Source: a bacterium
Lineage (GTDB): Bacteria > UBA8248
Direction of reading: 5' to 3'
DNA: 64,000 nucleotides
Assembly (NCBI GenBank): GCA_965261085.1
Contig: OZ253442.1
Location: forward strand, 4,128,001-4,192,000
Shown: positions 18,354-54,261 of the stretch, in pieces
Numbering within the stretch: the first letter of the stretch is position 1
Layout of the letters: each line of letters starts with the position of its first letter
Made by a program: the position numbers and the translations under genes
Notes under the pieces: model-generated
The model's database searches: none
What the model saw: the letters and a program-made list of their open reading frames with translations, nothing else
Told to the model about the DNA's origin: nothing

Positions 18354-18392
18354 AAAAACCGGCCCTCCCCGTATCGGGAGAGCCGGCTCTTT
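18354..18392. terminator. Probable bidirectional intrinsic terminator between cupin gene and tail module
   Basis: A5-CCGGC.CTCCC/GGGAG.GCCGG hairpin followed by CTCTTT, between convergent genes. Confidence 0.6.
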
Positions 18393-18594
18393 AGTTCTTG
18401 AATCGTCTGAGATTCGCGCTTTTCCTACCCGGCTCCCGCCGACTCATCCGCTCCAGGGCCAAGCCGGCTTCGAGTACCTCCTGGTTGAAGCGAAACTCCT
18501 CCCAGGAGCATCGGGCCAGCAGGTGCGGGGGGAGGCCGTAGGTCTTCGCCTGAAAATGAATGACCCCCAGAAATTCTTTCCTACGCCGCCGGAA
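18391..18594 (-). CDS. Probable frameshift extension (T part of G/GT) of the tail assembly chaperone
   Basis: Open +1 frame overlapping the 3' end of the chaperone with no convincing own start; FLGVIHFQAKTYGLPPHLL. Confidence 0.45.
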   Translation of the reverse strand, partial: FRRRRKEFLGVIHFQAKTYGLPPHLLARCSWEEFRFNQEVLEAGLALERMSRREPGRKSANLRRFKN

Positions 18595-18973
18595 ACGTAT
18601 CGCCTCCCGGCGCGCCCTCCTCAGGGGCAGGGGCCGCCGTCTCGTTCTGCAGGGCCGTAACGGCGGTGAAGATCGCATCCGCATCCGCCGGGGCGAGTTC
18701 ATGGATACTGAGTTCATCCGGCATACAACGCCCCGGTTCTTTTTCAGTCATCGAGCCGCGCTCGGGAACGAAACAACGCCTCAGGATGCAGTGCACCCAC
18801 TCTCCGGTGAGCGCATATCGCTCCTCCCCGCTCGCAGCGCCGTTCGAGGCGCCCGCGAACAGTTTCGGATACGCCGCCATGTCCAGGAGATTCGGCGCGC
18901 GCACGAAGCCCTTGAGCCCTGAAGGCAGGGTGATGGGCTTGCGGCCATGGTTTCTGTATTCTGATATTTCCAC
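18581..18973 (-). CDS. Probable phage tail assembly chaperone (G-like)
   Basis: 130 aa, directly after tail tube gene, KPITLPSG start, GGAGG SD; call is mainly positional. Confidence 0.55.
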   Translation of the reverse strand: MEISEYRNHGRKPITLPSGLKGFVRAPNLLDMAAYPKLFAGASNGAASGEERYALTGEWVHCILRRCFVPERGSMTEKEPGRCMPDELSIHELAPADADAIFTAVTALQNETAAPAPEEGAPGGDTFPAA

Positions 18974-19045
18974 GATTCCTCCCTATCGTTTTCGCTGAAT
19001 CAGACCCACTTGAGATGAAGAAGAATCCGCCTATTGGGATGACGA

Positions 19046-20185
19046 CTAGGTGAAGACGATAGATATCTCGTCATCGCCTATATCGCGCGCCAGGCGGTAA
19101 GGCGCATCGTAAGTCAACAGACCGTCCCGGTCCCCGAAACCCAAATCCGAATATTGGCACTTGGGCGCGGTGATGGTGCAGATGTTCCCGGCCCTGTGGC
19201 CGATCTGCACGCCCAGGGGGAGTTGCGCGCCGCTCTCCCAATCGGCGAACACATCGTCGGTGGCTTTGAGCACGGCTTCGGGGTCGAACGAACCGGAGGG
19301 CGCCCGGCCCGTCACCATGGCGTTCACGTGTCCGCCCGATGCGTTGGCGCTCTGGCGCAAAACCACGTTGTTGTTCATGGCGAAGCGGATGTTCGTCACG
19401 TCGAAGTGGAACCCGCCGAACGAGAAGCCGCTCATGAGGACGGGTTCGGGCGTTTCGGCGTCGTAGGAATCGCCATTGAGCAGGGCTGCATCGCTCACCT
19501 CGAAATCGGCCGCCTCGAACTCCCAGTCCACCGTGGGAACGCCGTCCAGAGGGCAATTGATGGAAAAACTCCCCATGCAGCCCAGATACATGATCCGCAA
19601 GCCGTCGATGAACGTCGTCAGGCAGATTCTCGTGTAGTCCGATTTATCGGATGTGGGTGCATAGGTGACGGAGGCGCCCGCGGCAATCGTCTCCCTCATC
19701 GCACAGCCTTTGAACAACAATCCATAATCCGGAGCAATTCCCGCAGCGCCGGAACCGCGCAACTCGGTGGAAAAGGTAATCTGGGCGGAGCGCTTCCCGG
19801 GAATCGACGGGAAGGGCGAGAGGCTCGCATCCTTCACCGCGCGCTCGAGCTGCTCCACGCTGACCTCATGGGCGAAGTTGCCCGCCCGGAACAATTCCCC
19901 CGCAGCAGCCGGCCGATCCAGAAGATAGGCCGTGCCCGCAACGGGCATGGCGTCCCAGGCGGCGTCTACCGTAATCGTGTCCGAGGTCGAATCGAATTCC
20001 CGCACTCTTCTTTTTTGGCCGATGCCCACGCCTCGAATCGTTCGCAGCACCGAACCGTTCCAGAAATCATCATCCTCTGAAAGCGCGGCGTCCACCAAGG
20101 TGGAGGCATCGGCGGAATCCGCCACCAGTTCTTTTTCTTCCGTCGCGCCGATAGTTTGGAGATCCATCAATATCGTATCGCCCAT
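19046..20185 (-). CDS. Phage tail tube / major tail protein with N-terminal inserted domain
   Basis: TELRGSGAAGIAPDYGLLFKGCAM, VTYAP, TGRAPSGSFDPEA, GDRDG, GDDEISIVFT are typical of tail tube proteins. Confidence 0.75.
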   Translation of the reverse strand: MGDTILMDLQTIGATEEKELVADSADASTLVDAALSEDDDFWNGSVLRTIRGVGIGQKRRVREFDSTSDTITVDAAWDAMPVAGTAYLLDRPAAAGELFRAGNFAHEVSVEQLERAVKDASLSPFPSIPGKRSAQITFSTELRGSGAAGIAPDYGLLFKGCAMRETIAAGASVTYAPTSDKSDYTRICLTTFIDGLRIMYLGCMGSFSINCPLDGVPTVDWEFEAADFEVSDAALLNGDSYDAETPEPVLMSGFSFGGFHFDVTNIRFAMNNNVVLRQSANASGGHVNAMVTGRAPSGSFDPEAVLKATDDVFADWESGAQLPLGVQIGHRAGNICTITAPKCQYSDLGFGDRDGLLTYDAPYRLARDIGDDEISIVFT

Positions 20186-20257
20186 TCTCTATTCTCCTCC
20201 TTCGGTTTTTTTGAAGCGAAGGGACATCCTTCGCCGGTTTTCATTCCTTCTTTCCAA

Positions 20258-20791
20258 TCAATCCCGCCGAATCCGCTCTATCGCCCGAACCCGGATTTCT
20301 GCGTAATGGCAAAGCACGTTTCCAAATGTTCTTAGTTCAATCAGGTCCACCTGCGGAGGCTGAAGACGCTCCAGGGACCGAACGCGCGGGGCGCCTGATT
20401 CATCGAGGAGGCGAAGCGTTTTGTCGTTCCTGAAGCGGTCGCAAATCTCCTCGATCAGCTCCTGAAAGGCCACCTCACTGCCCACCGCGTCCTCGGCGCT
20501 CATGATTCCGAACAACAAGAACGTATGGGTTCTTCTGCTGAGGCCTGCGGGCGTGAAGCCGCCGGCCGCGTTCGAGCCGATGGATGCGACCTCTTCTCCG
20601 GCTCTCTCGCGCGTCAGCACCCAGCCCCTGATTTGGTTGAGGCCGTTGCCAGCTTCCCACCGGAAAAGGTCCAGGTATTTGCCCAGATCGGCCGACCAGC
20701 GCTGATAGCTGTGCACCCGCCCCGCCTCCGCCACGCTCGATATTTCCGCCAAAATGGCGTCGCCAATTTCTTTGTATTGTGATTTAGCCAC
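20258..20791 (-). CDS. Probable phage tail terminator/completion protein
   Basis: GTG start overlapping upstream gene; GRVHSYQRW, IRGW, SEVAFQELIEEICDRFR, FGNVLCHYAEI; position between neck and tube. Confidence 0.6.
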   Translation of the reverse strand: MAKSQYKEIGDAILAEISSVAEAGRVHSYQRWSADLGKYLDLFRWEAGNGLNQIRGWVLTRERAGEEVASIGSNAAGGFTPAGLSRRTHTFLLFGIMSAEDAVGSEVAFQELIEEICDRFRNDKTLRLLDESGAPRVRSLERLQPPQVDLIELRTFGNVLCHYAEIRVRAIERIRRD

Positions 20792-21308
20792 CGACTCTCC
20801 TCGCAATCTCATCCAGCAGTTCACGAATGCGCCTGTCGATTCGGCTTTGGTTATCCTCAAAAGCGCGCGCGAACATGCGGTGTCCACTTGTCCCGCGCCG
20901 GACTATCGCGCGAGCAACGAGGAAGGCCACGCTCTCGATATACCCATCGGGCGGATCCAGTTTGTGGGCCACCCAGCGATACAGGGACGACCCCTCCCTC
21001 CAGGGCGGCATTCCGCCACCCGCCCGGCGTCCGAATTCCACGTACCTGGCGTAAGGGACGCGCGAAGCGACCACGCCGCGCAACACGCCCCGGCCTTCTC
21101 CCTTGATTTCGGTGAAAATACTGCCCCTGAGGTTTCCGCTCGCGCCGATGGGCGTTCGCGTCATGACCTCGCGCCTGAGCATTTCGGTGATCTCGGCCAT
21201 CGCCTCGCGCGCGAGGCGAAAAACCTCCTCCTCCTGCGCGCTCGGCGGCGCTTCCGCCAGGGCATCAAGCGTTATATGTCGACGAAACACTTCGCCTCTC
21301 CTCCCCAC
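20784..21308 (-). CDS. HK97 gp10-like phage neck/tail-completion protein
   Basis: TPIGASGNLRGSI, PYARYVEFG, GTSGHRMFARA. Confidence 0.75.
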   Translation of the reverse strand: MGRRGEVFRRHITLDALAEAPPSAQEEEVFRLAREAMAEITEMLRREVMTRTPIGASGNLRGSIFTEIKGEGRGVLRGVVASRVPYARYVEFGRRAGGGMPPWREGSSLYRWVAHKLDPPDGYIESVAFLVARAIVRRGTSGHRMFARAFEDNQSRIDRRIRELLDEIARRVGG

Positions 21309-22062: not shown

Positions 22063-22404
22063 TCAAGTCTTGAGCGTGATCTTGGCCTCGAACGTGAACG
22101 AAGGCTCCTCCCCGCCGACGGACCACGCGAGCCTGACCCAGGGGCCGATGTTCGCGAGCTTGACGAGGGTTTTTCCGGTCGAGGTGATCCGGGCGGATTT
22201 GGTATGGACGAAAACCGCTTCATCATCTGCAGGCCCGGTTTGCACCTCGAAATCAAGCGTGGGGGATGCACCCGAGACCGCCGTCACGTCGATGAACAAC
22301 AGCGCCTCGGTGAAGCGGCTCACCTCGAACGCCGTGCTGCCTCCCGCGGCGACGCGGGCCGCGGGAGGAGCGAGGACTATGGTGTGGGTTCGCCTGTCGG
22401 ACAT
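22063..22404 (-). CDS. Small beta-rich virion protein (decoration-like)
   Basis: AAGGAG SD; alternating beta-strand pattern, DVTAVSGASPTLD; directly after major capsid. Confidence 0.5.
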   Translation of the reverse strand: MSDRRTHTIVLAPPAARVAAGGSTAFEVSRFTEALLFIDVTAVSGASPTLDFEVQTGPADDEAVFVHTKSARITSTGKTLVKLANIGPWVRLAWSVGGEEPSFTFEAKITLKT

Positions 22405-22438: not shown

Positions 22439-24520
22439 CTACGCGGGCGCGCCGCGATAGAAGCCGCGAAAGTCCAGGACGGCGCCGCCGTAGACGTGTC
22501 TGATCTTGTAGCGAATCTTGTCCGCGCTGAATCCGCTGCCGGCGGAGGGGTTGTCCTCGATGAACAGCTCGGGCTCGCGCATGTCGTCCATGAAGCCGAT
22601 TTCGATGGTGTCCATCAGGCCCGGGTCGGCGATCATGTACCAATCGTTCGCGTCGGTGAGTTCGGGCACCCACAAGGGCTCCATACCCAGGCGGTTGATG
22701 ACGCTCGGCTGCGCGGAGTTCCCGCCCGCAACAACCTTGACGGACGACTGGGTGACGTCGAACGCTTCTTCGAGCAGCTCCGTGGGGTGAACGAGAAATT
22801 TCGGCCGCGCTTGAGCCGCCACCTCGACGCCCTCTTCTCCATAAAACGTCTGCCGGCCCATCGCCTTGATGCCGGCGATGACGTTGTCGTACGTGAGCGC
22901 GTTCGTGGAGGTGTTGTTGTGGTTGGCGTGGAACAGCGCGTCCCCGTCGTATATGTCGGCGTTTGCCGTCAGGAAATCGAACACGAAGCTGTTCAGGGTG
23001 CGCTGGGCCGCACGGGCGAGACGCTGGGGAATCATGCGAATCGCGCCCATGTCGTCGTTCTGGATCATCTCCCAGGTGAGGTCTTCCACCCCACCGCGCT
23101 TGGCCACGGCGTACGTCACCTCCTCATCCGTCGGGGAGGCGAGCGCCGGATAGGTAGCCTGTTCGGCGACTTTTTGCAGATCACCGTAGCCGCCGACGCG
23201 CACCCGGCGGTTCGTGCGGAAATCCTTGACGGGCGCCACGGAGGAGACGATCTTCTTCCACTGGTGGAACCTCTCGTCCCTGAAATCACGCAGCATGGCC
23301 CGCCGGATGGAATCCCCGAACGCCTCCCCCCATGTATTCGTCTGCAAGGAGGCGGAGAGGCGGCGCACCCCGTTCCAGTCCTCGGCGGCTCGGTGATAGT
23401 GGAAAGTCTCGGCGAAGAACTGGCGCGGGGTGAGGCGATGGCCCGTGAAATCCTGAAACGCCTCGCTCATGAAGCGGTAGGGCCGCTCCCCGTCGACCAC
23501 CTCATCGCGCGAACTCCAAAGCCCGTCGAGGGCCGCTTTTTTGCGGTCCGCCTCGTCTCGCATCACCTCCGCACGCGCGCCGAAACCACGGAGTGCGCCG
23601 CTCGCCGTGAGTTTTTCCAGCGTGGACGCCTCGATGCGAATCGCATCTTCGATTTCCTCCTCAGTGAAGCTCCTGCCCCCGAACTGGGCGCGCATTTTCT
23701 CCTGAACGGCTTCGGGCAATGCGGAGGCCGCGAGTTTTTGAGCAAGCACCCTGCGCGCGGCGGTCTCCGGGGTCCTGGTTTCGTCCTTCATGGCGCTTCC
23801 TCCATTTTCCTTGAAGTCCAGTTCGAGGCCTGCGTCTTCACAGGCCGCGAGGAGTTGTTGCGGCGTCCATTTATCACCGAGCCTCCTGGCCGATTCGGGC
23901 GCCACGCTTTTGAGTTTCTTTCCGAGTTTCTCGAACATCTTCACCTCCGATGTAGTGGAATGATTGGCGGCGAGACCCAGAATCCCGCCCCCCAGCTTGC
24001 CTTTGTGCACGACGTCGACGGAGTGAACCGCCAGAATCTTTTCGAAATGCAAAACGAGCCTATCGGCCTCCTCGCGGAACTCCGCTTGCGCTAAAACGTC
24101 AAAGGAAAAGCCAAAAGGCTCATCGAGACCCCGGGCCAGCGCATCGTGCGCCAGCGCCTGAAACCATGCCGCGGATCGCGAAACCGCAAAGGTGCTCAAA
24201 AGCCCCTCCTCACCCATTCGGACCTCGCGGTGCCAGCCAACCAGGTCCTTGATGTCGGGACCACCCGACCCGGTATGGTTCGCGAACGCCTGCGCGCCCT
24301 CGAACAGGGGAGCGGCTTCGCGCAGAACCTCACGGGGCAGGAACCACTCCCCATCCCTCGAGTAGCCGGCTTGTGCGATCAGCACGTCGAAATCCCAGGT
24401 TTCGCCCGGCGGCTGCGCTTGTTTCGCAACCGCGCGAATGAGTTGGCCATGCAGCCTTAAGGGGCGAAAATCCTTTTGCGCTTCCGCGCGCGCCCATATG
24501 AGGTTCATCCATCTTTTCAA
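22439..24520 (-). CDS. Prohead protease/scaffold - major capsid fusion (Mu gpT-like C-terminal domain)
   Basis: TTG start at 24520 after AAGGAG SD; N-terminal ANH...DLVGW...GFSFD...HSVDVV protease-like region; C-terminal DFR, KRGG...TWEMIQNDDMGAI, LFHANHNN, YKIRHVYGGAVLDFRGFY. Confidence 0.8.
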   Translation of the reverse strand: MKRWMNLIWARAEAQKDFRPLRLHGQLIRAVAKQAQPPGETWDFDVLIAQAGYSRDGEWFLPREVLREAAPLFEGAQAFANHTGSGGPDIKDLVGWHREVRMGEEGLLSTFAVSRSAAWFQALAHDALARGLDEPFGFSFDVLAQAEFREEADRLVLHFEKILAVHSVDVVHKGKLGGGILGLAANHSTTSEVKMFEKLGKKLKSVAPESARRLGDKWTPQQLLAACEDAGLELDFKENGGSAMKDETRTPETAARRVLAQKLAASALPEAVQEKMRAQFGGRSFTEEEIEDAIRIEASTLEKLTASGALRGFGARAEVMRDEADRKKAALDGLWSSRDEVVDGERPYRFMSEAFQDFTGHRLTPRQFFAETFHYHRAAEDWNGVRRLSASLQTNTWGEAFGDSIRRAMLRDFRDERFHQWKKIVSSVAPVKDFRTNRRVRVGGYGDLQKVAEQATYPALASPTDEEVTYAVAKRGGVEDLTWEMIQNDDMGAIRMIPQRLARAAQRTLNSFVFDFLTANADIYDGDALFHANHNNTSTNALTYDNVIAGIKAMGRQTFYGEEGVEVAAQARPKFLVHPTELLEEAFDVTQSSVKVVAGGNSAQPSVINRLGMEPLWVPELTDANDWYMIADPGLMDTIEIGFMDDMREPELFIEDNPSAGSGFSADKIRYKIRHVYGGAVLDFRGFYRGAPA

Positions 24521-24617: not shown

Positions 24618-24669
24618 AATCTAGGGCAAGGGGTCTCAAACGCGGGCCTCGCAAATGCGGGGAAATGCG
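24618..24669 (-). promoter_or_regulatory. Shared late-type promoter, copy upstream of head-tail module
   Basis: Minus strand CGCATTTCCCCGCATTT (24669-24653), N29, TAGATT (24623-24618). Confidence 0.7.
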
Positions 24670-26250: not shown

Positions 26251-26378
26251 GGACCGGGCTATCGTCGCCGAGACGTCCATGGCGCTTTGAGGAGCGATAG
26301 GGGCGAACCATCTTTGATGGTCCTCGGCGTCAGCCGAGTGAGGCGGTAAGGAGCCGACAAAGAAGTCGACTCCGGTCC
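26251..26378. ncRNA. Candidate multi-stem structured RNA (family not recognised)
   Basis: Closing stem GGACCGG/CCGGTCC enclosing ACCATC/GATGGT, CTCGGC/GCCGAG, GGAG.CGAC/GTCG.CTCC and CTATCG/CGATAG stems. Confidence 0.45.
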
Positions 26379-26570
26379 GGATCAAGGTAACCCGTCAAAG
26401 GAAGGAGGATGCGATGATATTCACAATAAATCGCTTCAGCCGTGCGGAGACGCTATCCTCCCCGGCCCCATTGCATCGCCGGGCGGGGAGGAAACCTCAA
26501 GGCTGATGCCTTTATAAAGGCGGCAAAACGCCTTATTGAGGTGAGACGAGTTCTCACCCTGAAAAGAAGA

Positions 26571-28156: not shown

Positions 28157-29062
28157 ATGATGAAAATCGGATTTATCGGACTGGGAAACATGGGGGCGGG
28201 CATGGCTGCCAACCTCCAGAAAGCTGGCTATGAGCTCGTCGTACACGACATCGCCCCGGAAGCGGCGGCTGAGCACTTAGAAAGAGGCGCCCTCTGGGCG
28301 GACACTCCCGAAGAGGTGGCCCGCGCATGTGAAATCATCTTCACTTCCCTGCCCGGCCCCAAAGAAGTCGAGAGCGTCGCCACGGGGCCGAACGGCATCC
28401 TCTCAGGCATCAGCGCGGGAAAAGTCTATATCGACTTGAGCACGGGATACCCCACCATCGTCCGCAGCATCCACCAGAAGTTCGCAGAAACAGGCGCGCA
28501 CATGCTGGACGCCCCCGTGAGCGGCTCCACCATAGGCGCGAACACGGGACGCCTCGCGATCATGGTGGGGGGCGATAAAGAGGTGTATGAGCGCTGCAAG
28601 CCCGTACTCGACGCCATCGGGGACCGCCCCACCTACACCGGCGGCATCGGCACCGGCACCGTCTGCAAGCTCGCCCACAACTGTCTGGGCTACGGCATTC
28701 AGGCCATTGCGGCGGAATGCTACACCCTGGGCGTCAAGGCGGGCGCCGATCCCAAAGCCGTGGCCGAGACGATCTTAAACGGCGCGGTGGGCCGGGGCGT
28801 ACACTTTCACTTCGTCTTCCCCGAAACTCTCTTCAAGGGAAAATTCGACGAGCCCCACTTTCCCATGAAGGGCGCGGTGAAAGACGTAGGGCTGGCGCTT
28901 GAGCTCAGCCGCGAGTATGACGTGCCCATGGCGATAGGCAACATCGCCTACGGGGAACTCATTGCGGGCGTGAACCGAGGATGGGGAGAGGATGACGCCA
29001 GGCGCGCCATGACGCTCCAGGAAGAGCGCGCGGGCGGCGCGCAGATGCGGATTTCAGAATAG
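28157..29062 (+). CDS. 3-hydroxyisobutyrate dehydrogenase-family NAD(P) oxidoreductase
   Basis: IGFIGLGNMG, LDAPVSG, MVGG, KLAHN. Confidence 0.9.
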   Translation: MMKIGFIGLGNMGAGMAANLQKAGYELVVHDIAPEAAAEHLERGALWADTPEEVARACEIIFTSLPGPKEVESVATGPNGILSGISAGKVYIDLSTGYPTIVRSIHQKFAETGAHMLDAPVSGSTIGANTGRLAIMVGGDKEVYERCKPVLDAIGDRPTYTGGIGTGTVCKLAHNCLGYGIQAIAAECYTLGVKAGADPKAVAETILNGAVGRGVHFHFVFPETLFKGKFDEPHFPMKGAVKDVGLALELSREYDVPMAIGNIAYGELIAGVNRGWGEDDARRAMTLQEERAGGAQMRISE

Positions 29063-29075
29063 GAGATTTTGCGGG

Positions 29076-30080
29076 ATGAAACACGGTATCGCCATGCTGC
29101 CCCCTGCGCCCGAGACCTACGCGCACTGGTGCCGGCTCTCCGAGGAGGCGGGCTTTGACGTCATCTGGGTGCCGGATTCCCAGTCTCTCTACAGAGAGCT
29201 GTACGTTTCATGCGCCATCTGCGCGGCTAACACCACGCGTGCGCTGCTGGGTCCCAACGTCACCAACCCGCTCACGCGCCACCCGGCGACGGCGGCGAGC
29301 GCCATCGCCACGGTGGACGAGTTCTCGGGGGGCCGCGCGTTGTTCGGAATCGCCACGGGCGACAGCGCCGTCCTGAACCTGGGGTTACGCCCCGGACGGG
29401 TGGACGACATGAGAGACTACGTGCTCGCCATGCGCGGGATGCTCGAAGAAGGTGCTGCGCACTACCAGGGAAAACCCTGCACGCTGAACTGGCATAAAAA
29501 GCGCATCCCGCTCTACATCGCCGCCGAGGGGCCGCGCACCATCCGGCTTGCGGGCGAGATAGCGGACGGCGTCACAATCGGAACCGGCCTCACTCCTGAA
29601 GTTGTGGCCGATTCCCTCACCTGGCTCGAGGAGGGCGCGAGAAAATCGGGCCGCAAACTGAGCGACTTGGACATCTGGTGGCTGGCGAAGGTGAACGTGC
29701 GCGAAGACGGCGAGACCGCGCGGGAGGAGATTCGCATGGCGCTTGCCGCGAGCGCGCACCACGCCTTTCGCTTCACGCTCGAGGGCAAGCGAATCCCCAG
29801 AGAACTGCTCTCCGCCGTCGAGACCCTCAAAAAAGAATACGCGTTTCACGAACACGAGATGGTGGACAAGCAGACGAACGCCGAACTCGTGGACAGGCTC
29901 GGCCTTCGCGAGTACCTGCTCGATCGCTTCGCTATCGCAGGCTCCCCCGCCGAATGCAGAGAAAAGGTGAAGGCCATGAAAGCAACCGGCGTCGAGAACT
30001 TGAGAATCGCCGCACACGTTCACGATAAGCCCGCCTTCATCCGGGCGTGGGGCCGCGAGATTATCAGCCAAATCAAGTAA
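29076..30080 (+). CDS. LLM-class oxidoreductase (Mer-like, possibly F420-dependent)
   Basis: PDSQSLYRE, VTNPLTRHP, GIATGDSA, AAEGPRT. Confidence 0.85.
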   Translation: MKHGIAMLPPAPETYAHWCRLSEEAGFDVIWVPDSQSLYRELYVSCAICAANTTRALLGPNVTNPLTRHPATAASAIATVDEFSGGRALFGIATGDSAVLNLGLRPGRVDDMRDYVLAMRGMLEEGAAHYQGKPCTLNWHKKRIPLYIAAEGPRTIRLAGEIADGVTIGTGLTPEVVADSLTWLEEGARKSGRKLSDLDIWWLAKVNVREDGETAREEIRMALAASAHHAFRFTLEGKRIPRELLSAVETLKKEYAFHEHEMVDKQTNAELVDRLGLREYLLDRFAIAGSPAECREKVKAMKATGVENLRIAAHVHDKPAFIRAWGREIISQIK

Positions 30081-30097
30081 TCAAAGAGGATATCTTC

Positions 30098-31099
30098 ATG
30101 AGACACGGTATTTCATTCAGACCGCCCGACACGGATTCATTCGCCCATTGGTGCAGATGTGCGGAAGAACTCGGCTTCGATGCGGTATTCATCCCCGATA
30201 CCCAATCCCTTTATCGGGAGGTGTACGTGTCGAGCGCGATATGCGCGATGGAGACGAGTGAGATCATCTTCGGCCCATGCGTCACGAACCCCGTCACGCG
30301 GCACCCGGCGGTTGCCGCGAGCGCAATAGGCACCATCAGCGAACTATCGGGCGGGCGCGCCTTCTGGGGTATAGCCACGGGCGACAGCGCAGTGTTGAAC
30401 TTAGGGCTTAGACCCGCGAAGCTCGCCGAGATGCGCGAATACATCCTCGCCGTGCGGGGAATGCTCGAAGAGGGAAGCGCCCAGTACAAAGGGAAAACCA
30501 ACCGGCTGAGCTGGCACAAATCCCACGTGCCCATCCACATCGCCGCGGAAGGCCCCAAGACACTGCGCCTGGCGGGCGAGGTGGCCGACGGCGTCATCAT
30601 CGGAACCGGCCTCATCCCCGAAGTCATCGCGGACACGCTCGCCTTCATCGACGAGGGTGCCAAGAAATCAGGCAAAAGGGTGGAGGATCTGGATCTGTGG
30701 TGGCTGGTGGACGCCCACGTGGACGCAGACGGCGAGCGCGCCCGCGAGGACATCCGCACCGCTCTCGCCGCGAGCGCGCATCATTCCTTCGCCTTCACGA
30801 TGGAGGGCAAACGAATTCCTAAGGAACTCGAATCCGCCATCCGAGCGCTCAGAGACGGTTATCAGACATCCGAGCACGGCTTCATGAACAAATCGAACAA
30901 CGCAGGCCTAGTCGATGAGTTCGGACTGAGAGATTACCTGGCCGAGCGCTTCGCCATCGTCGGCACGCCCGCTGAATGCCAAAAGAGGCTGGAAGACCTG
31001 GAAAACCTGGGCGTCAAGGGGCTTCGCATCAACAACAACCTGCCCGACCGGACGGTCTTCATGAACGCCTGGAGCAAGGAGGTGCGACAGATCGCGTAA
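30098..31099 (+). CDS. LLM-class oxidoreductase, tandem paralogue of upstream gene
   Basis: PDTQSLYRE, VTNPVTRHP, GIATGDSA, AAEGPKT. Confidence 0.85.
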   Translation: MRHGISFRPPDTDSFAHWCRCAEELGFDAVFIPDTQSLYREVYVSSAICAMETSEIIFGPCVTNPVTRHPAVAASAIGTISELSGGRAFWGIATGDSAVLNLGLRPAKLAEMREYILAVRGMLEEGSAQYKGKTNRLSWHKSHVPIHIAAEGPKTLRLAGEVADGVIIGTGLIPEVIADTLAFIDEGAKKSGKRVEDLDLWWLVDAHVDADGERAREDIRTALAASAHHSFAFTMEGKRIPKELESAIRALRDGYQTSEHGFMNKSNNAGLVDEFGLRDYLAERFAIVGTPAECQKRLEDLENLGVKGLRINNNLPDRTVFMNAWSKEVRQIA

Positions 31100-31250
31100 C
31101 AAACTTAAATTCAGCGTGAGTGAAGCCCAAAGCCTTACTGGGTGGATACTATGGGTTCCCCTCGGGCCGCCGCTTCGGTTAGAATGACTGGAAATTATCG
31201 AAACAGGCGAATTTCGACTTCCCCGGACAATCTCTCACAGGAGGGTGGAC

Positions 31251-31805
31251 ATGACCGAGATGACGAAGCAAAAAGAAAAAATTCTCGTGTACGAACCCGT
31301 GGCGGAGGCCTCGGGCGAGAGCGCGGTCATGGCCGCGCGGCCCGAGAGCTTAAACGGCAAGAGCGTCGGCCTCATCAACAACACCAAGGATTTTACGGAT
31401 GAGATTTTAGGCGTCATGGGCGCCGCGCTTGAGAAACAGTTCCCCGGCGTGCGCGTCGTGCGCTACAGAAAAGAATCCGTGAGCGGCGCATCGCCTGCCC
31501 TCATGGAGCAGGTGGAAGGACAGTGCGACGCCGTCGTTTCCGCTCTTGGCGACTGAGGCTCCTGCACGTCGTGGAGTATCCACGACAGCGTCGCTTTAGA
31601 GAAAAGAGGGCTGGCCACGGTCACCATCGTTACCGACGCGTTTGAGACCTACGCCAGGCAACTCACCAAGCTGCACAAGATGCGCGACCTTCCTCTCATA
31701 GCGCTTCCCCATCCCATCGCGGGCAGAAAGCGCGAGGAGGTGGATGAGATGTCGGCGGAAGCGAGTGCGTATCTGGCAGCAGCCCTCACGCAGGCGAGTA
31801 GGTGA
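31251..31805 (+). CDS. UGSC-family selenoprotein (in-frame UGA at 31554-31556)
   Basis: ALGD-UGA-GSCTSWSIHD...LEKRG...LPHPI continues in frame to TGA at 31803-31805; perfect hairpin GTCGTGGA-GTA-TCCACGAC begins 11 nt after UGA. Confidence 0.85.
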
Positions 31806-31812
31806 TACAAAG

Positions 31813-32913
31813 ATGGACACGCCGAAGCCTGCCCGGCAGATAGCGCTCGATGAAGACCCAAGCGCGATATTCGATCACTTCTACGAAGAGGGCTGGACGG
31901 ACGGGCTGCCCATCATCCCGCCGACGGAGGAGCGCGTTGCAGAAACCCTGCGCTTCACGGACTATGCGCCGCAAGATGTGGTCGCCCTCGTCCCGCCCGG
32001 AAACGCGCCCGCCACGGTGGAGAACATCGCCATAAACGCCGTGATGGCGGGGTGTAAGCCTGAATACCTGCCCGTGCTCATCGCCGCCGTGCAGGCCATG
32101 ACGGAGCCCGCCTACAACCTCTACGGCCGCCAGACGACCACCCACCCGGGCGCGCACCTGATGATCGTCCACGGGCCTGCCCGGAACGAACTGGAAGTCA
32201 ACTGCCGCCAGAACGTGTTCGGCCAGGGCCGGCGCGCCAACGCGACGCTCGGGCGCGCGGTGAGGCTCCTGATGATGAACGTGGGCGGCGGCATCCCCGG
32301 CGTGACGGACATGGCCACACACGGGCATCCGGGCAAATACTCCTACACCATCGGCGAAGACGAGGAGGGAAGCCCCTGGCCGGCCTTTCACGTCGACAGG
32401 GGGCTTGCGCCCGACATCTCCGCCGTCACCATGCTCTGCGCCGAGTCGCCCCACAACGTCAACGATCTGGTGAGCAAGACGGCCCATAAGTATCTCGGCA
32501 CCGCGGCTTCGGCCATGAGTCACTTAGGCGCGAACGGCGTCTACCGGAGCGGGCTGCCGAGCGAGCAGATGCTCGTCCTGACCGCCGAGGCGGCCACATG
32601 GCTTTCGGATCAGGGGTGGACGAAGGCCGACGTATCCCAGTTCATCTTCGAGACGGCGCGCCAGCCGATTCGCCTCATGCGTGATCGCGGCGGCTTCGAC
32701 ATGACGCCGCTCGCTCCTTTCGTGAACATCGAGGAGGATGAAGACATGGCCCCCATCGTCCCGAGGCCGGAAGACATCCTCATCGTCATAGCCGGCGGCC
32801 ACGGACGCCACATGCAGGCCGTCCTCACGGCGAGCTACAACCTGAGCGTCACCAAGCCCATCACCAGAAAAGACGGAACGCCGGTGGGCTCGGTGCGGGA
32901 GTTCGTGGATTGA
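31813..32913 (+). CDS. Conserved UGSC-associated protein
   Basis: GWTDGLPIIPPTEERV, TVENIAINAVMAGCKPEYLPV, RANATLGRAVRL. Confidence 0.8.
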   Translation: MDTPKPARQIALDEDPSAIFDHFYEEGWTDGLPIIPPTEERVAETLRFTDYAPQDVVALVPPGNAPATVENIAINAVMAGCKPEYLPVLIAAVQAMTEPAYNLYGRQTTTHPGAHLMIVHGPARNELEVNCRQNVFGQGRRANATLGRAVRLLMMNVGGGIPGVTDMATHGHPGKYSYTIGEDEEGSPWPAFHVDRGLAPDISAVTMLCAESPHNVNDLVSKTAHKYLGTAASAMSHLGANGVYRSGLPSEQMLVLTAEAATWLSDQGWTKADVSQFIFETARQPIRLMRDRGGFDMTPLAPFVNIEEDEDMAPIVPRPEDILIVIAGGHGRHMQAVLTASYNLSVTKPITRKDGTPVGSVREFVD

Positions 32914-36822: not shown

Positions 36823-36873
36823 AACCGGAACTCCTCCCACTCGAGGATGCCATACGCATCCTCATGGGGGAGG

Positions 36874-49893: not shown

Positions 49894-50071
49894 GTCTCGC
49901 CTTTCTAAAAAAAGGTGGAATCACCGTCGGTGACATATTTTGGGATGAGGGGAAATATAACCGAGCGGCGGTGCGGCGTCCAGATGTGGGGGGTGTTTCT
50001 TATGTCGGGAGGGGGGTTGAAGCTCTAGTCAAACTTGATGATGCAAAGCATTTCATACGTCGTGATGCGCG

Positions 50072-50209
50072 TTACAAAGAGGCCAGGAGATCGTCCACGG
50101 AATCGTAACTTTTAATCCTGCCCTCTCTGTAATCATCATCCGCCTCGTCTTCCATCGCCTGCCATTCATCGGAATAAAACCAAGAGAGGTCCTCTTGCAT
50201 AGTATCCAT
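50072..50209 (-). CDS. 45-aa acidic antitoxin-like peptide (below ORF-track cutoff)
   Basis: MDTMQEDLSWFYSDEWQAMEDEADDDYREGRIKSYDSVDDLLASL resembles type II antitoxin C-termini. Confidence 0.55.
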   Translation of the reverse strand: MDTMQEDLSWFYSDEWQAMEDEADDDYREGRIKSYDSVDDLLASL

Positions 50210-50437
50210 GGTGCCCTCGTAATTATGAACTGGCGGTTTTGTCTGCTACATTTTGGGTGAATATGAAGCGCAGTATTATCGAACCTATCACAAGATGATC
50301 CGAAAGCGCCTGAGACATTACGTGGTGCAGTCTGGAACCACCATAATTTGCGTCCCATGCATACCATTATTCAGATGGAGTTATTGGCAAAGGGTTTTAA
50401 TGGCAAGCAGCTTTCGTGGAAAATTCTCATGGCGTAA

Positions 50438-50632
50438 TCAAATCTTATCATCTATCCCAGCCGACTTGAGGATTCCGTTTGCTGTATGCTTGGATTTTGT
50501 GCTTTTAGGGACACTTACATGAACACTCGTATCAATACTGACCCATATTTCGTGGGATCCTTTGCCTTCTCGCCAAAACACAAAATTTGAGTCCTTGAGT
50601 TTCTGGGTCAATTTTCTGTAAATGTCTGTCAT
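50438..50632 (-). CDS. hicA: HicA-family toxin
   Basis: REGKGSHEIW, VSVP, HTANGILKSAGI. Confidence 0.88.
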   Translation of the reverse strand: MTDIYRKLTQKLKDSNFVFWREGKGSHEIWVSIDTSVHVSVPKSTKSKHTANGILKSAGIDDKI

Positions 50633-50904
50633 TGAGCAAAAACTTCACGGGTCGGACGTTCCTCATTGAATGGACGTTCCCAAACTACAGTTGAAAACAA
50701 GTCTTTAATCTTTCTCGTGGTGAACTCAGGGCCTTGAATATGGTTAGCGACTATAAGATCGCCAACGAGATCATTCATTACCTCTTCAAATTCATCTATT
50801 GTTTTTGCTTCAATATGCAGTCCCTTGATATTACTTTCAGAAACAAAAACTTCAGCCTCTTCGTCCCATGCAGTTTTTACAAAGAAGGTCATATTCGAAC
50901 TCAT
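50629..50904 (-). CDS. DUF1902/HicB-like antitoxin
   Basis: AWDEEAEVFVSESNIKGLHIEAKTIDE; ATGA overlap with hicA. Confidence 0.78.
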   Translation of the reverse strand: MSSNMTFFVKTAWDEEAEVFVSESNIKGLHIEAKTIDEFEEVMNDLVGDLIVANHIQGPEFTTRKIKDLFSTVVWERPFNEERPTREVFAQ

Positions 50905-51278
50905 GATTTTCTCCCTCGAACAACAAATACGGGTTCAATTCCCTCCACGGCCTCCCCATCTATTTATTTGACGTGGATATCTTCTTATCCGCCGCTCTAA
51001 AGATGGTTTTTTCAATTTTTCGTGGCGTAGCTGGTATCAGATAAACTACGCTCCTCACCGGACGCCCCGGTGATTTGGAACCCATGGTTTCCCCTGTGAT
51101 ATTTAGTGTAGGCGACTGTCAACAGAAATATCGCCCCATGTAACGGAAATGTCAATGTTCCGCATATGGAACGAAAACAATTTTGATGGCCGCCACTATT
51201 TTGGCGTGCCAAGTTACGCATATAATTCCCACTTATTCATTTCTTTAAATCGAGGCGATTAAAGTCACTCCCCCACCC

Positions 51279-51851
51279 TCACTCGATGCGCTCCTCGAGC
51301 GTTCGCGTTGACTCCTCGACGATTTCGCACACCTTGTCCATCACCTCGGGATGCTCGCGGAAAGATTCGCGCACTTCCTTGACGATCGCCATCTTGGCGG
51401 CGGCGAAGCCATCCTCGTACTGGAGCCTCAGCCGCTCGGCCGATATGCGGCTGCGCTCGAGCGCGTTCACCATCTGCGCGAGTTTCTCGGGCGTCAAGCC
51501 CTCGAAGGATTCTTTCCCCATCTGCGAGACGGCCTCGACCGCCTGGGCCATCAGCATCCGCCGCGCGGCGGCGGCCACCTTCTCGCCCGGGTCCCTGCCC
51601 TCGCCGTCATAGGCCATAACCTCCTCAATCAACTCATCCACCATGGCTTCCACCCGCTTGGTCTTGCGGATGCCCTCGAGCAGGCGGTTGTTGCGCGCGC
51701 CCACGGAGCCGAGCGCTATCTTCTCCCCGGTGGCCTCCTCGAAGGCCTCGGCCACCTCCTTGTAGGTTTTCCCCTCGGCGAGCAGAGGGTCGACGATTTT
51801 CTCGGCGCCATATTCCACTACTTTCGACCTCCGTCCCCGCCTCCTCTCCAT
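51279..51851 (-). CDS. Mu gp27/DUF3486-like protein (putative small terminase)
   Basis: RGRRSKV N-terminus, TYKEVAEAF HTH-like segment, helical C-terminus; TGATG coupling to upstream gene. Confidence 0.65.
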   Translation of the reverse strand: MERRRGRRSKVVEYGAEKIVDPLLAEGKTYKEVAEAFEEATGEKIALGSVGARNNRLLEGIRKTKRVEAMVDELIEEVMAYDGEGRDPGEKVAAAARRMLMAQAVEAVSQMGKESFEGLTPEKLAQMVNALERSRISAERLRLQYEDGFAAAKMAIVKEVRESFREHPEVMDKVCEIVEESTRTLEERIE

Positions 51852-52183
51852 CAGAGATCTCCCACGAGGATGTCTGGAGAGGCGGAGACGGCTCCTTCGA
51901 GCAGGCCGCGCCCCTTGCGGGTCAGGTGCGCCTCATAATCCGTCAACAGGCGCCCGAAACCGCCCGGGGTGCGCTTTTCCACCAAACCCCGCTCCGCCAG
52001 ATCGTCCACGAAGGCCTCGAGCGTCTCACGGCCCAAGGGCGCGCCGTCTTCATGGTGGCCCGCCTCGCGCAGCGCACTCCAAAGGAGAAGGCTGCCCACG
52101 CACGATTTCACCTGAAAGGCTTCCTGATAATAGAGCGTCTTCAATATGTCGCCGCGCAGGACGCGGGCCGCCAACTCGTTCAC
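51851..52183 (-). CDS. Mu gp26-like winged-helix protein
   Basis: RGDILKTL...DLAERGLVE...AHLTRKGRGLLEG; GAGGAGG SD; precedes gp27-like gene. Confidence 0.6.
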   Translation of the reverse strand: MNELAARVLRGDILKTLYYQEAFQVKSCVGSLLLWSALREAGHHEDGAPLGRETLEAFVDDLAERGLVEKRTPGGFGRLLTDYEAHLTRKGRGLLEGAVSASPDILVGDL

Positions 52184-52191
52184 AATGAAAC

Positions 52192-52349
52192 ACCTCCTCG
52201 ATGACTTTCATACCGGTGCGCCGGACGCCGCTCGCCGAAATCCAGGCCTCTTCCAAGCACTGAACTACCTCCTCGATGACTTTCATACCGGTGCGCCGGA
52301 CGCCACTCGCCGAAATCCAGGCCTCTTCCAAGCACTGAACTACCTCCTC
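52192..52349. repeat. 75-bp tandem duplication (two copies plus 8 bp)
   Basis: Units start at 52192, 52267 and 52342; one mismatch (G52230/A52305). Confidence 0.95.
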
Positions 52350-52403
52350 CATGACATTGATACTGAAATACCAAAGACCCCCGCGCGCGGCGGAAACTCA
52401 CCC

Positions 52404-52455
52404 AATATAGAACGCGGCGCAGGTTCGGGCGGCACGGAAAATGCGGGGAAATGCG
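52404..52455 (-). promoter_or_regulatory. Shared late-type promoter, copy upstream of gp26/gp27-like module
   Basis: Minus strand CGCATTTCCCCGCATTT (52455-52439), N29, TATATT (52409-52404). Confidence 0.72.
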
Positions 52456-52518
52456 GACTCGGGCGCGTTGAGAAAAGAATTTCGGAGTTGCACAATGCCG
52501 CCAGAGGAGGAGGCTTCG

Positions 52519-52911
52519 ATGCGCTCGAGTATCTGGATATTCGCCGCACTCGCCACATTCGCGCTGTGGTTCGCGTGGCTGCCCGACGCGCCGGCCCTGG
52601 GCCACGGGGAGGAGGAAATCCTCCTGTTCGCCTATCTGGCGGAAGAGCGCAACCTCCTGAGAATCTCGACCGCCATCGTGGGCGGCATCATCCTGGCGAT
52701 GGGCGCCTTCATCACCCAGCAATCGCGCGCCGAGGCGAGAGAGCACGCGGGACCTGAATTCTCCGGCTTCAAGGTGATGATGCCGGGGCTGCTCGTCACC
52801 TCCCTGGGCGTCGCCGTGCTGTTCACGGCCGCCTTCATCCTGCCCGAGCAGATCAAGATCTTGCACGATCATCCCCTGGAGCATATCGAGACGAAAACCA
52901 CGGAAAAATAG
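52519..52911 (+). CDS. Hypothetical membrane protein
   Basis: GAGGAGG SD; signal/TM segment plus two further TM segments. Confidence 0.6.
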   Translation: MRSSIWIFAALATFALWFAWLPDAPALGHGEEEILLFAYLAEERNLLRISTAIVGGIILAMGAFITQQSRAEAREHAGPEFSGFKVMMPGLLVTSLGVAVLFTAAFILPEQIKILHDHPLEHIETKTTEK

Positions 52912-52939
52912 GAACGGCCCGCGAGCCGCCCTCGTCCCC

Positions 52940-53362
52940 TCACCGCGTCTTTCCCGTCAATTTCTCGACGGTGCGAAGCGCGCCCAGACCCAGCATCCCC
53001 AGGGTGAGTTCCAACAATCCCTCCGCCGAGACGGGATAGGGCACGAGCTCACCGCTCATCAGCACCTGCCGCGTCCAGAGCCATGCGCCCAGGGCGTACT
53101 GGGGGATGAAGTAAAAGGCGAGCGAGACGCCGCAGGTCCACAGGATGAACGGCCTGCCCCCGGCGACGAAGGCGCTTCGGTGGGCGGCCTCTATCTTGTT
53201 GATCTCGTTCTGGGCTTCGGCGGGGCGCATCATCAGCTTTTGTTTTATCGCCTCCGCCGCGCGTCTCTCATCAGGCGTCTCGACGAACTTGTCGATGACG
53301 TTGGCGACACCCTCCGCCGCCGTGATGACGCCGCCGCCGATGAGGTTTTCCAAAAAGGCCAT
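52940..53362 (-). CDS. 3TM-type holin (family described as 'holin for gene-transfer release')
   Basis: IDKFVET, EINKIEAAHRSAFVAGGRPFILW, GMLGLGALRTVEK; TGATG coupling to lysozyme. Confidence 0.8.
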   Translation of the reverse strand: MAFLENLIGGGVITAAEGVANVIDKFVETPDERRAAEAIKQKLMMRPAEAQNEINKIEAAHRSAFVAGGRPFILWTCGVSLAFYFIPQYALGAWLWTRQVLMSGELVPYPVSAEGLLELTLGMLGLGALRTVEKLTGKTR

Positions 53363-53775
53363 CACGCGCTCCTCATGCTCTCGGCGACCCTGCCCGCCCG
53401 GGCCGGCAGTTCCCTCGCGTAATCGGAATCGAGCGCCTCCACAGCCGCGCGCTCGTAATCGCCCTCTCTCAGCGCGGCCCACATTCTCTTGAAACCCAGA
53501 AGGCTCGGCACGCCCATGTTGTAGGCCATGTTCAAAACCGCGCGCTGCGCGAGGGGTCTCAGATTTTTATACACCTCGCCGACGCGGGAGCGCTCGAGTT
53601 CTCCGGCCATCAGGCCGAGCCGATGCCGGAGGAGCAGTTCCGCTTCGGCTTGCGATATGCCGTCTTCCAGCAGCGTTCCGTAGCCGATGGTCTTCTTGCG
53701 CTTGCCGTCGAGATACACTTTCGCGACGAAACCCTCCTCGCGCTTGATATCCTCTACGAGTTCGTCCGTGAGCAT
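53362..53775 (-). CDS. Phage lysozyme (GH24, T4-like)
   Basis: IKREEG...YLD...TIGYG, NMAYNMG, FKRM, EALDS. Confidence 0.9.
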   Translation of the reverse strand: MLTDELVEDIKREEGFVAKVYLDGKRKKTIGYGTLLEDGISQAEAELLLRHRLGLMAGELERSRVGEVYKNLRPLAQRAVLNMAYNMGVPSLLGFKRMWAALREGDYERAAVEALDSDYARELPARAGRVAESMRSA

Positions 53776-53993
53776 CCCTCACCCTCCCCTTCAGGCAAGT
53801 CCCCGGCCTCACCCACCTCTTGCATCAGTCGCCGGAGCGCCGCCGCGCCCTTTCGAGCGCTCGCACGATGCGCATAGGCCTGGCTCGACGCCAGGATGCG
53901 TCCGTTCCTCGCTCGCACACGGAAGCGATGCCGCCCGGATTTATCCCTGAAAATATCGACGGGGCGATATTTGGCTCTCTTTACGGCCTGCAT
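53754..53993 (-). CDS. DUF1508/YegP-family protein
   Basis: IFRDKSGRHRFRVRARNGRILASSQAY. Confidence 0.75.
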   Translation of the reverse strand: MQAVKRAKYRPVDIFRDKSGRHRFRVRARNGRILASSQAYAHRASARKGAAALRRLMQEVGEAGDLPEGEGEGCSRTNS

Positions 53994-54199
53994 ACGAAAC
54001 CCCCCAGGAAAAAGCCCAACACCACGAGGCATGCGCCCGCAACGATCAGGCGCAAGACAGTGCGCTTTCCCCCAGCCCAGCGCGATAGCATGGCGTCCGT
54101 TTTTCCTTCGAATTCATTTTTCTCAGACATTGCTTTCCTCTCTTTCCGGTAGCGAAATCCCGCGCGTCGCCCGCGAGCGATGCGCCTTCTATGCGGGAG

Positions 54200-54261
54200 A
54201 GTTTATGTCTTGATAGCGCGCGCCCTATGACGGAAAATGCGGGCAACTGCGGGGTGATGCG
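54200..54261 (-). promoter_or_regulatory. Shared late-type promoter, degenerate copy upstream of lysis module
   Basis: Plus strand AAATGCGGGCAACTGCG (54235-54251, 15/17 match) with a third unit to 54261; minus-strand TAAACT (54205-54200) at the same N29 spacing. Confidence 0.6.

Follow-up and report, generated by a model that had tools for sequence, protein, structure and literature searches.

Introduction

Gene transfer agents (GTAs) are described by Kogay et al. (2022, Virus Evol, PMC9662315) in a definition of six points: particle proteins derived from caudoviricetes, packaging of mostly random host DNA, a fully endogenised and often multi-locus genome, a genome too large for the limited head, vertical co-diversification with the host, and delivery of the DNA to cells. 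A further account (PMC11841831) reports that loci of known GTAs can lie hundreds of kb apart, that their small terminase has lost its DNA-binding domain, and that few independent lineages are known, GTAs being hard to find since they resemble dead prophages. Here we analyze a stretch of 64,000 nucleotides (the window, G000:C1:4128001-4192000; coordinates without a prefix are window positions) from the genome G000, a metagenome-assembled single contig of 4.27 Mb from an uncultured Nitrospinota bacterium whose close relatives are recorded as Nitrospinaceae or “Tectomicrobia”. On its minus strand, from 54261 down to 18391, lie four groups of phage late genes, which together with a fifth locus elsewhere in the chromosome make up the putative GTA-like element that is the subject of this work.

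Comparison with relatives (G and L numbers denote the comparison genomes and loci, L029 being the locus of genome G048) suggests, with a probability that we put at roughly 0.7, that these are domesticated and vertically inherited late genes of a Mu-like siphovirus, forming one co-regulated system that occupies at least five chromosomal loci and is maintained throughout the family. The element is a strong candidate for a GTA-like system that would have been domesticated independently, is unusually fragmented and is conserved across a family, and from its gene content we infer the formation of particles, the packaging of host DNA and its delivery to other cells. At the level of abstracts, no paper describing such an element in Nitrospinota, Nitrospinae, Tectomicrobia or sponge symbionts was found.

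Results

Four Modules in the Window and a Fifth Locus Outside It

A preliminary description of the window, made from its letters and open reading frames (ORFs), had placed four late-gene modules on the minus strand at 18391-54261 with ordinary host genes in intervals of about 9 and 14 kb, and comparison with Pfam and PHROGs bears this out. The groups follow one another in the order lysis, winged-helix protein and small terminase, large terminase and portal, and protease-capsid fusion to tail chaperone (Table 1), with 14.4 kb between the small and large terminase genes and 9.1 kb between portal and capsid. The cellular genes between the modules encode a cyclic di-AMP (DAC) cyclase domain protein, a deaminase, a dehydrogenase, two luciferase-like monooxygenases, YajQ/DUF520, AmtB, a HAMP adenylate cyclase, parts of an ATP-binding cassette (ABC) transporter, an M24 peptidase and two S15 peptidases, and they are retained in G009 and G010, the two relatives without phage genes. 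The membrane gene at 52441-52911 on the plus strand is likewise kept where the phage genes were lost and therefore behaves as a host gene. Beyond the chaperone pair the window holds just a plus-strand cupin gene and no further phage gene. The host-like composition that had been remarked on also holds, the GC content and the GC content at third codon positions (GC3) of the phage genes being similar to those of their neighbors. Two details of the gene calls have to be revised within modules that otherwise stand: the large terminase, called as a single ORF, consists of two, and the capsid start, put at 24619, is most likely the TTG at 24520 that lies behind AAAGGAG.

The window had been described as free of integrase, transposase and replication genes. 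In agreement with the first part of this statement, the tyrosine integrase family PF00589 gave no match in the window or at distances of up to about 70 kb from the tail locus; for transposases and replication genes there was no systematic search. Beside the modules no Mu early-region genes (transposase, Gam, Mor/C) were seen, with transposase families not searched genome-wide, and as far as these searches reach the element is not a Mu-like transposable prophage with an early region of that kind.

The gene set within the window is incomplete, as it contains neither tape measure nor tail tip, and the suspicion that further tail modules would be found elsewhere in the genome proved correct. A search with the proteins of the contiguous cluster of a distant relative (G032) against all six-frame ORFs of the genome gave a fifth locus at G000:C1:3886622-3894208 on the plus strand, about 240 kb from the modules of the window and flanked by an M23 peptidase gene and a cinA-like gene. 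It encodes five tail-tip proteins of 359, 177, 403, 313 and 231 amino acids (aa), a small membrane protein, a variable 217-aa protein and a protein of 578 aa with matches to four tape-measure PHROGs (best E 1.5e-6), which in L031 occupies the position of the tape measure. Two loci with capsids about 68-71% identical, L031 (from a “Tectomicrobia” record) and L029, have the homologues of the fifth locus directly after the chaperone, and the ancestral order was therefore contiguous. Judged by these similarities, the fifth locus completes the particle gene set. Some relatives of the 403-aa protein (P0032-P0035) reach about 640 aa and have LamG (PF13385) as their C-terminal domain, which is what one would expect of a module for receptor binding that lineages exchange.

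Conservation, Selection and Joint Loss

Five markers drawn from four of the loci (capsid, portal, small terminase, 403-aa tail-tip protein and tape measure) were searched in the 22 other genomes of the genus, and each is present as a single copy in the same 20 of them at 53-98% identity; all five are absent from G009 (99% complete) and G010 (95% complete). At the level of the family the capsid occurs in 32 of 41 genomes and in eight of nine genera (58-98% identity), and outside the family capsid matches, in 4 of 10 genomes, are at 42% only.

The ratio of nonsynonymous to synonymous substitution rates (dN/dS), estimated by the Nei-Gojobori method against six relatives, lies between 0.05 and 0.57 for the phage genes (mostly around 0.2) and between 0.00 and 0.52 for the neighboring host genes, with 0.10-0.45 for genes of the tail locus. 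The synonymous rates (dS) are similar in both sets, as in the comparison with G002 (0.24-0.51 for phage and 0.22-0.68 for host genes). On these estimates the phage genes are under purifying selection. Two stops apparently inside the capsid of G021, and stops in three tape-measure matches, were considered as frame breaks and rejected, because they lie upstream of the real start codons.

Maximum-likelihood trees were built from seven concatenated host proteins (18 genomes) and from five concatenated phage proteins (16 genomes), with L029 and L023 omitted for missing or partial host genes and with G009 and G010 not enterable in the phage tree. The two trees have all major clades in common and similar branch depths. 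Since the loci are syntenic, the dS values host-like and the major clades shared, the sequences point to an inheritance that is mostly vertical, with co-diversification of element and host.

The two genomes without the markers show how the element is lost. In both, the window's host genes are retained at 54-94% identity and with their order unchanged, every phage module is gone, and at the tail locus, also without its phage genes, the M23 and cinA-like genes are adjacent. G010 still has relics: the portal is left with its final 40 aa, the small terminase with its initial 25 aa and the YegP-like protein with 37 aa, and the terminase unit has kept its promoter motif (see below). These remnants indicate that the modules were once present and have been deleted locus by locus. 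The host tree places G010 within the crown clade, with a module-bearing genome as its sister (support 99/99), and has G009 branching deeply, several well-supported nodes away, so that there were two independent losses, each of all five loci. Such a double joint loss is what would be expected if the loci are useful only together.

Layout in Relatives and Stepwise Dispersal

G008, G002, G021, G007 and G001 are collinear with the window over the whole 36 kb and its host genes, and G011 is so up to amtB; the interval between portal and capsid measures 7.6-11.8 kb in all 15 relatives that have both genes on one contig. Head genes and tail locus are 0.24 Mb apart here, a distance that is about 0.5-2 Mb in G008, G002, G011, G021, G001 and G007. 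More distant loci are interrupted at other places: in G048 the portal adjoins the capsid and the tail is contiguous, with small terminase, large terminase and portal about 10 kb apart, and in L035 terminase and portal are followed by two host genes and then by the capsid. As the pattern of interruption differs among genera, dispersal was stepwise, with order and strand kept.

A Promoter Motif Common to Six Units and Its Repeat Family

All six transcription units are preceded by the 19-bp motif CGCATTTSCCCGCATTTKC, a direct repeat with a 10-bp period that is followed by a TAnAnT box 26-27 nt downstream, and we predict that it is a promoter common to the six units which would give them co-regulation. 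When the 60-kb regions of six relatives were scanned, all motif matches lay at module heads in five of them and the sixth, G021, had one extra match, unplaced, at 23664; the motif also heads the tail locus in the five relatives examined (5/5). Other genera have a variant (CGAATTT...) at the same places, among them positions internal to clusters that are still contiguous, and such variants stand at the position of the head-to-tail-tube unit in L029, L035, L028 and L036. Their presence inside contiguous clusters implies that the multi-promoter late region predates dispersal, which it probably made tolerable. The contiguous clusters of G032 and G027 contain no copy of the motif.

At the scale of the genome the motif lies 20-320 nt upstream of 22 of 3878 crude gene calls, five of which are module heads (the crude list lacked the sixth module-head gene), and G000 has 119 matches at up to 3 mismatches. 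A family of short repeats was found in which each unit is composed of the motif, a −10-like box, a variable hairpin with compensatory differences and, about 91 nt from the motif, a conserved AT-rich terminus. The genome has 58 of these termini, 39 of them paired with a motif, which gives about 40-58 units, many of them intergenic and pointing toward the 3' end of a neighbor. Neither seven loci of repeat units nor the window as a whole gave a match in Rfam.

Counted at up to 1 mismatch, the motif is present in 30-96 copies in 19 module-bearing genomes, in none in G009 and in two in G010, so that the genomes devoid of modules have lost nearly every copy as well; contrary to a strict link between modules and motif, the module-bearing G016 and G020 have three copies each. 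Because these two genomes are also copy-poor, the link between motif copies and modules is suggestive only. A tentative idea, which we consider doubtful, is that of a GTA-type system of a new phylum with a control signal that has spread over the chromosome, the direct repeat heading both the six units and some 40-50 short, structured and non-coding repeat units per genome. If the link is causal, the particle system and a set of genome-wide small transcription units or packaging sites on the DNA would form one regulon, existing only with the element. The winged-helix protein was considered as reader of the motif, a role which is not supported, as it is absent from G001 with 33 motif copies and present in G016 and G020 with three each; it may instead act alongside the small terminase.

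Annotation of the Module Genes

The features of the element are collected in Table 1. The large terminase gene is divided into two ORFs, the ATG of the nuclease part overlapping the TGA of the ATPase part (ATGA). The overlap reads ATGA or GTGA in 6/6 relatives examined, and in the more distant L035 the terminase parts are likewise in different frames. The large terminase here is a stable two-gene form and not a fresh frameshift.

The small terminase falls slightly below the cut-off of Pfam Phage_Mu_Gp27 (27.5 bits against 28) and aligns to nearly the full length of the Mu gp27 and phrog_426 profiles. Upstream of it lies the gene of a 110-aa protein, earlier called “gp26-like”, for which no match was found in Pfam, PHROGs or NCBIfam and nothing meaningful in a sequence search of the PDB. 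Its AlphaFold2 model has a predicted local distance difference test (pLDDT) value of 92.6, and the top Foldseek matches of this model are winged-helix proteins of the MarR/PadR/TubR type (probability 1.00, TM 0.5-0.63). With 52-96% identity it is the best-conserved protein among the relatives, and it was not found in G001. A 75-bp tandem repeat sits in the leader between the promoter motif and this gene.

The capsid fusion also matches phrog_29592, phrog_133 and phrog_4523, “major head and protease protein”. The connector candidate and the 209-aa neck or tail protein have no family match in Pfam or PHROGs; we read the start of the former as 22019, with the listed ORF extending to 22271. The translation of the holin suggests that it likely starts at the Met at about 53362, overlapping the stop of the lysozyme. 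The chaperone-like pair has no Pfam or PHROGs match either, no canonical slippery heptamer was found in its overlap, and the label “chaperone-like” reflects position and conservation: both ORFs are conserved as proteins in L029 and L031, where the tape-measure candidate comes directly after them.

Table 1. Features of the putative element (window coordinates unless a genome position is given)
Feature	Position	Strand	Evidence and remarks
Promoter motif, lysis unit	54233-54261	-	Two overlapping 10-bp-repeat copies; TAAACT 27 nt downstream; in G008, G002, G021
DUF1508/YegP-like small protein, first lysis gene	53754-54032	-	Pfam PF07411 E 2.9e-10; dN/dS 0.37-0.47
Phage lysozyme (endolysin)	53362-53775	-	Pfam PF00959 E 7.8e-10; dN/dS 0.20-0.26
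Holin with three transmembrane segments	52940-53482	-	PF11351 GTA_holin_3TM E 9.2e-12; phrog_3427 holin E 1.3e-23
Promoter motif, winged-helix/small-terminase unit	52437-52455	-	TATATT 27 nt downstream; in G008, G002, G021
75-bp tandem repeat, 2.3 copies	52192-52363	.	Tandem Repeats Finder score 316, 95% matches
110-aa putative winged-helix DNA-binding protein	51851-52183	-	Fold prediction
Small terminase subunit, Mu gp27-like	51279-51851	-	phrog_426 E 1.3e-7; in 20/22 genus-mates
Promoter motif, terminase-portal unit	36907-36925	-	TATATT 27 nt downstream; in 6/6 relatives; relic in G010 beside the portal relic
Large terminase, ATPase half	35764-36840	-	Pfam GpA_ATPase E 8.4e-18; phrog_675 positions 26-341 of 576; dN/dS 0.17-0.26
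Large terminase, nuclease half	35120-35767	-	phrog_675 positions 354-547 of 576; dN/dS 0.12-0.25
Portal	33750-35123	-	phrog_10963 E 2.2e-46; 20/22 genus-mates at 83-96%; 39% to Microcystis phage Mae-JY22
Promoter motif, head-to-tail-tube unit	24651-24669	-	TAGATT 27 nt downstream; in 6/6 relatives
Protease/major capsid fusion	22439-24520 (ORF to 24619)	-	Pfam Phage_capsid_4 E 2.3e-44; 20/22 genus-mates
113-aa head or tail accessory protein	22063-22404	-	Weak phrog_9522 E 3.8e-4; conserved 65-91%; dN/dS 0.21-0.41
Head-tail connector candidate, about 236 aa	21309-22019	-	Position; homologues in G032, G027 and phage Mae-JY22
HK97 gp10-like tail-completion/neck protein	20784-21308	-	Pfam PF04883 E 3.9e-8; phrog_5 E 2.5e-16
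209-aa neck/tail protein	20258-20887	-	Syntenic homologues in G032, G027, L029, L031 and Mae-JY22
Tail tube protein	19046-20185	-	Pfam Phage_tube_2 E 3.1e-12; phrog_290 E 6.8e-22; dN/dS 0.15-0.28
Tail assembly chaperone-like pair	130-aa ORF 18581-18973; overlapping +1-frame ORF 18391-18717	-	Position, conservation
Promoter motif, tail-tip unit	genome 3886474		
Promoter motif, tape-measure unit	genome 3892383		
Repeat-unit examples	G000:C1:1423209-1423300, 2292819-2292910, 3259105-3259240; one end copy in window at about 62996		

Assembly, Read Depth and RNA Libraries

The junctions between modules and host genes are identical in six other assemblies, several of which are single chromosomes. 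The public runs that contain most of an 8-kb test stretch number 17 and come from about eight studies. The depth in the best DNA run is 23-40 over most bins of host and phage genes, rises to 107 over 28340-32341 and is 7.7 over the PIN-domain gene described below; the short-read contigs of this run have their breaks between genes. Three RNA or RNA-like runs gave a few short contigs on tube, capsid, portal and the start of the terminase and most of their contigs on host genes; contigs of this kind show neither level, strand nor ends. In the same three runs the intergenic stretch 26267-26507, downstream of the DAC gene, has a contig depth of 145-219 with the surrounding genes below 10; it has no Rfam match and may be an abundant small RNA.

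Neighboring Genes

The yajQ/DUF520 gene (36936-37421, minus strand) lies directly upstream of the terminase promoter, is missing alongside terminase and portal in G009 and G010, and is reduced to a remnant of about 40 aa in G002 and G011; it may be part of the terminase unit or collateral in its loss. The PIN-domain gene (32932-33423, minus strand), which has low GC3, is flanked by a host gene and the portal gene. Of the six relatives examined, five lack it and G001 has it at 68%; one contig of an RNA library bridges its position, and its depth in the best DNA run is a quarter of that of its neighbors; it looks like a strain-variable insertion. Between the gene of an S15 peptidase and the small terminase there is a gap of low GC (50000-51200, about 0.51) with a DUF1902 (HicB-like) gene at 50629-50904 that, among six relatives, G001 alone has. 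The stretch 55000-63100 is a variable island (GC 0.49-0.54) that the relatives have in common patchily, with an N6/N4 DNA methylase (55569-56540), AbiTii (58260-59192), DUF4760 (59589-60197) and a duplicated gene of 128-159 aa (copies at 60429-60908 and 62170-62556), and is probably a defense island.

Discussion

Interpretation and Proposed Mechanism

The preliminary description had read the modules as a regulon maintained by the host and derived from a Mu-like or siphovirus ancestor, and the promoter motif at every unit and the joint loss in two lineages speak for that reading, as does phage Mae-JY22 (discussed below), with its gene order and Gam-family gene, for the ancestor. It had further looked to conservation in relatives, to intact genes with dN/dS below 1, to trees congruent with those of the host and to contiguity of the region, and our results agree on all of these (20 of 22 genus-mates, 0.05-0.57, shared major clades, and six independent assemblies). 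The region is also not an integrase-bounded element, to judge from the lack of an integrase within 70 kb and from the host genes that persist without the modules.

The proposed system would operate as follows. Some factor would act on the direct repeat common to the upstream regions and turn on the six units together; protease-capsid fusion, portal and neck proteins would form heads; DNA would be loaded into these by the two-piece large terminase together with the small terminase, which the winged-helix protein may assist; tube, chaperone, the 578-aa tape measure and the five tail-tip proteins would give a long non-contractile tail; and holin and lysozyme would free the particles. The loci extend over 36 kb of the window, the fifth locus of this genome is a further 240 kb away, and in relatives the distances reach 1.7-2 Mb; because of this spread and the lack of an integrase or replication module nearby, no particle would be expected to carry the whole set and the packaged DNA should be mostly that of the host. 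Packaging of mostly host DNA would make the element work like a gene transfer agent.

Several observations weigh against this interpretation. Particles, packaged DNA and transfer are predicted from the genes, in an organism that is uncultured. The coverage of phage genes in RNA libraries is sparse and may be DNA carry-over, and we draw no conclusion on transcription from it. The motif is not exclusive to the modules, the short repeat family accounting for the majority of its roughly 50-119 genomic copies, and no regulator was found: a Mor/C-type late activator has no match genome-wide, and the winged-helix protein is absent in the motif-bearing G001. Two polypeptides in place of one large terminase could impair packaging, yet the junction and both halves are conserved; in G048 (L029) the ATPase part of the terminase has a frame break, its matches at G048:C1:3141638-3142656 falling into two pieces in different frames with one TGA, which is either a further break or a sequencing error. 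The loss of the DNA-binding domain seen in known GTAs is not demonstrable in the small terminase, since the protein covers nearly the whole of the gp27 and phrog_426 profiles, and L013 and L014 are placed differently in the host and phage trees. The five tail-tip proteins have no match in Pfam, PHROGs or NCBIfam, and the AlphaFold2 model of the 403-aa protein is of low confidence (pLDDT 54.5); its top Foldseek matches, the tail tip of phage Chi (E 5e-4, TM 0.22) and the baseplate of JBD30, and the viral clusters and TipJ/Phage-tail_3 lead of the ESM Atlas are weak hints that would group it with siphovirus tail-tip proteins.

Alternative Explanations

A domesticated particle need not serve transfer, and it could instead be a PBSX-like killer, a device for lysis or DNA release or a delivery vehicle, with packaged DNA that is incidental. 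This explanation, which we hold to be unlikely though deserving of some weight, draws on the same evidence of domestication, as that evidence is silent on what particles do after their release, and the fibre-like tail-tip proteins and the LamG fusions in relatives would fit any targeting role; both halves of the terminase, the small terminase and the portal are, however, under purifying selection, which implies that packaging itself is maintained. It is improbable, and considerably more so, that remnants of one old prophage were exapted separately for unrelated roles, such as a lysis cassette for the release of vesicles or DNA and a capsid as a compartment, and do not function jointly. The modules do stand apart, each with a promoter of its own and with host genes between them, but all five loci are lost in both of two separate lineages, one promoter motif heads six units, five markers from four loci have an identical phyletic pattern, and the chaperone pair and tape measure make sense only with a tail.

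The fragmented layout and the missing genes for phage replication and integration would also be left by a defective prophage that was broken by rearrangements and is decaying neutrally. Such decay is very hard to reconcile with frames that are intact in 20 of the 22 genus-mates at 68-98% protein identity (the stops of G021 lying upstream of the real starts), with dN/dS well below 1 and with an element found in eight of the nine genera of the family, and we give it a very small probability. Smaller still, to the point of being barely credible, is the probability that we assign to an assembly artefact or to an active or mobile phage or island: the single contig is metagenome-assembled and in the best DNA run the contigs from short reads end between genes, but the same junctions are found in six other assemblies, the depth over phage genes is within the range of the flanking host genes, no integrase is nearby, and the host genes between the modules persist in genomes without modules. 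A domesticated, co-regulated and GTA-like element is our preferred reading.

If this reading is true, the element adds a new and independently domesticated GTA lineage in a family that, by its record labels, includes sponge-associated and groundwater genomes. Should host DNA be moved by the particles, dense symbiont communities would have in them a means of exchanging genes. It offers a naturally split and conserved large terminase, and the relatives form a series that shows stepwise dispersal from a contiguous phage. The types of evidence used here (identical phyletic profiles of scattered loci, joint loss with relics, and a common promoter motif) can be reused, and the predicted cis-element makes co-regulation directly testable in metatranscriptomes.

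Comparison With Known Systems

The closest isolated phage is Microcystis phage Mae-JY22 (PP438414.1; 41 kb), whose portal is 39% identical over 90% of the query and whose capsid fusion is 33% identical over 95%. Its genes follow the same order of lysis, gp27-like protein, terminase, portal, capsid fusion, connector and neck, tube, chaperones, tape measure and tail tip, and it has a Gam-family gene and a DUF3486/gp27-like gene; gene order, Gam and the gp27-like gene together fit a Mu-like siphovirus as the putative ancestor of the element. The terminase of Mae-JY22 is not detectably similar to the one found here, and its genome is contiguous with an early region (Gam, a methylase and many hypothetical genes), whereas the element has no such region and is interrupted by host genes. 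The distant G032 and G027, of the same class, have clusters that encode, with the order unchanged, homologues of the portal, of the capsid fusion (about 42%), of the connector and neck proteins and of two tail proteins. Both clusters are contiguous and lack the promoter motif, and the terminase of G032 is unsplit, 560 aa long and of another type. Clusters of this type, seen in 4 of 10 genomes outside the family, are as expected of ordinary prophages.

With GTAs such as RcGTA the element has in common that only head, tail, packaging and lysis genes of caudovirus origin are present and that genes for integration and replication are not, as far as can be told here from the genes themselves; that it is fully endogenised, with spread loci that are inherited vertically and co-diversify with the host; and that its holin belongs to a Pfam family named after GTA release (PF11351). 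Measured against the definition given in the Introduction, caudoviricete origin is indicated by sequence similarity for terminase, portal, capsid, neck, tube, tape measure, holin and lysozyme, and the genome is endogenised at five loci of conserved position with host genes between them and no integrase within 70 kb. As to the size of the head, the loci cover 36 kb and a gap of 240 kb here, and 0.5-2 Mb in six relatives, which on geometry would be too much for a single headful.

The element differs from known GTAs in its host phylum, Nitrospinota, and in its split large terminase. Its structural families are a GpA-type terminase, a Phage_capsid_4 protease-capsid fusion, Phage_tube_2 and a Mu gp27-like small terminase; RcGTA presumably uses structural families other than GpA_ATPase, Phage_capsid_4 and Phage_tube_2, and only the holin family PF11351 is common to both by name. 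Judging from the families found rather than from a direct sequence comparison, the element is not a relative of RcGTA. Most structural genes of RcGTA are in one cluster and its control is exerted by the CtrA/GafA circuit, whereas here even the head-tail genes are broken up and the units share a direct-repeat motif as their predicted promoter. PBSX-type defective phages are also chromosomally fixed late genes that build tailed particles filled with host DNA, but PBSX is one contiguous cluster of one species group, while the genes described here are scattered over the chromosome and conserved across a family.

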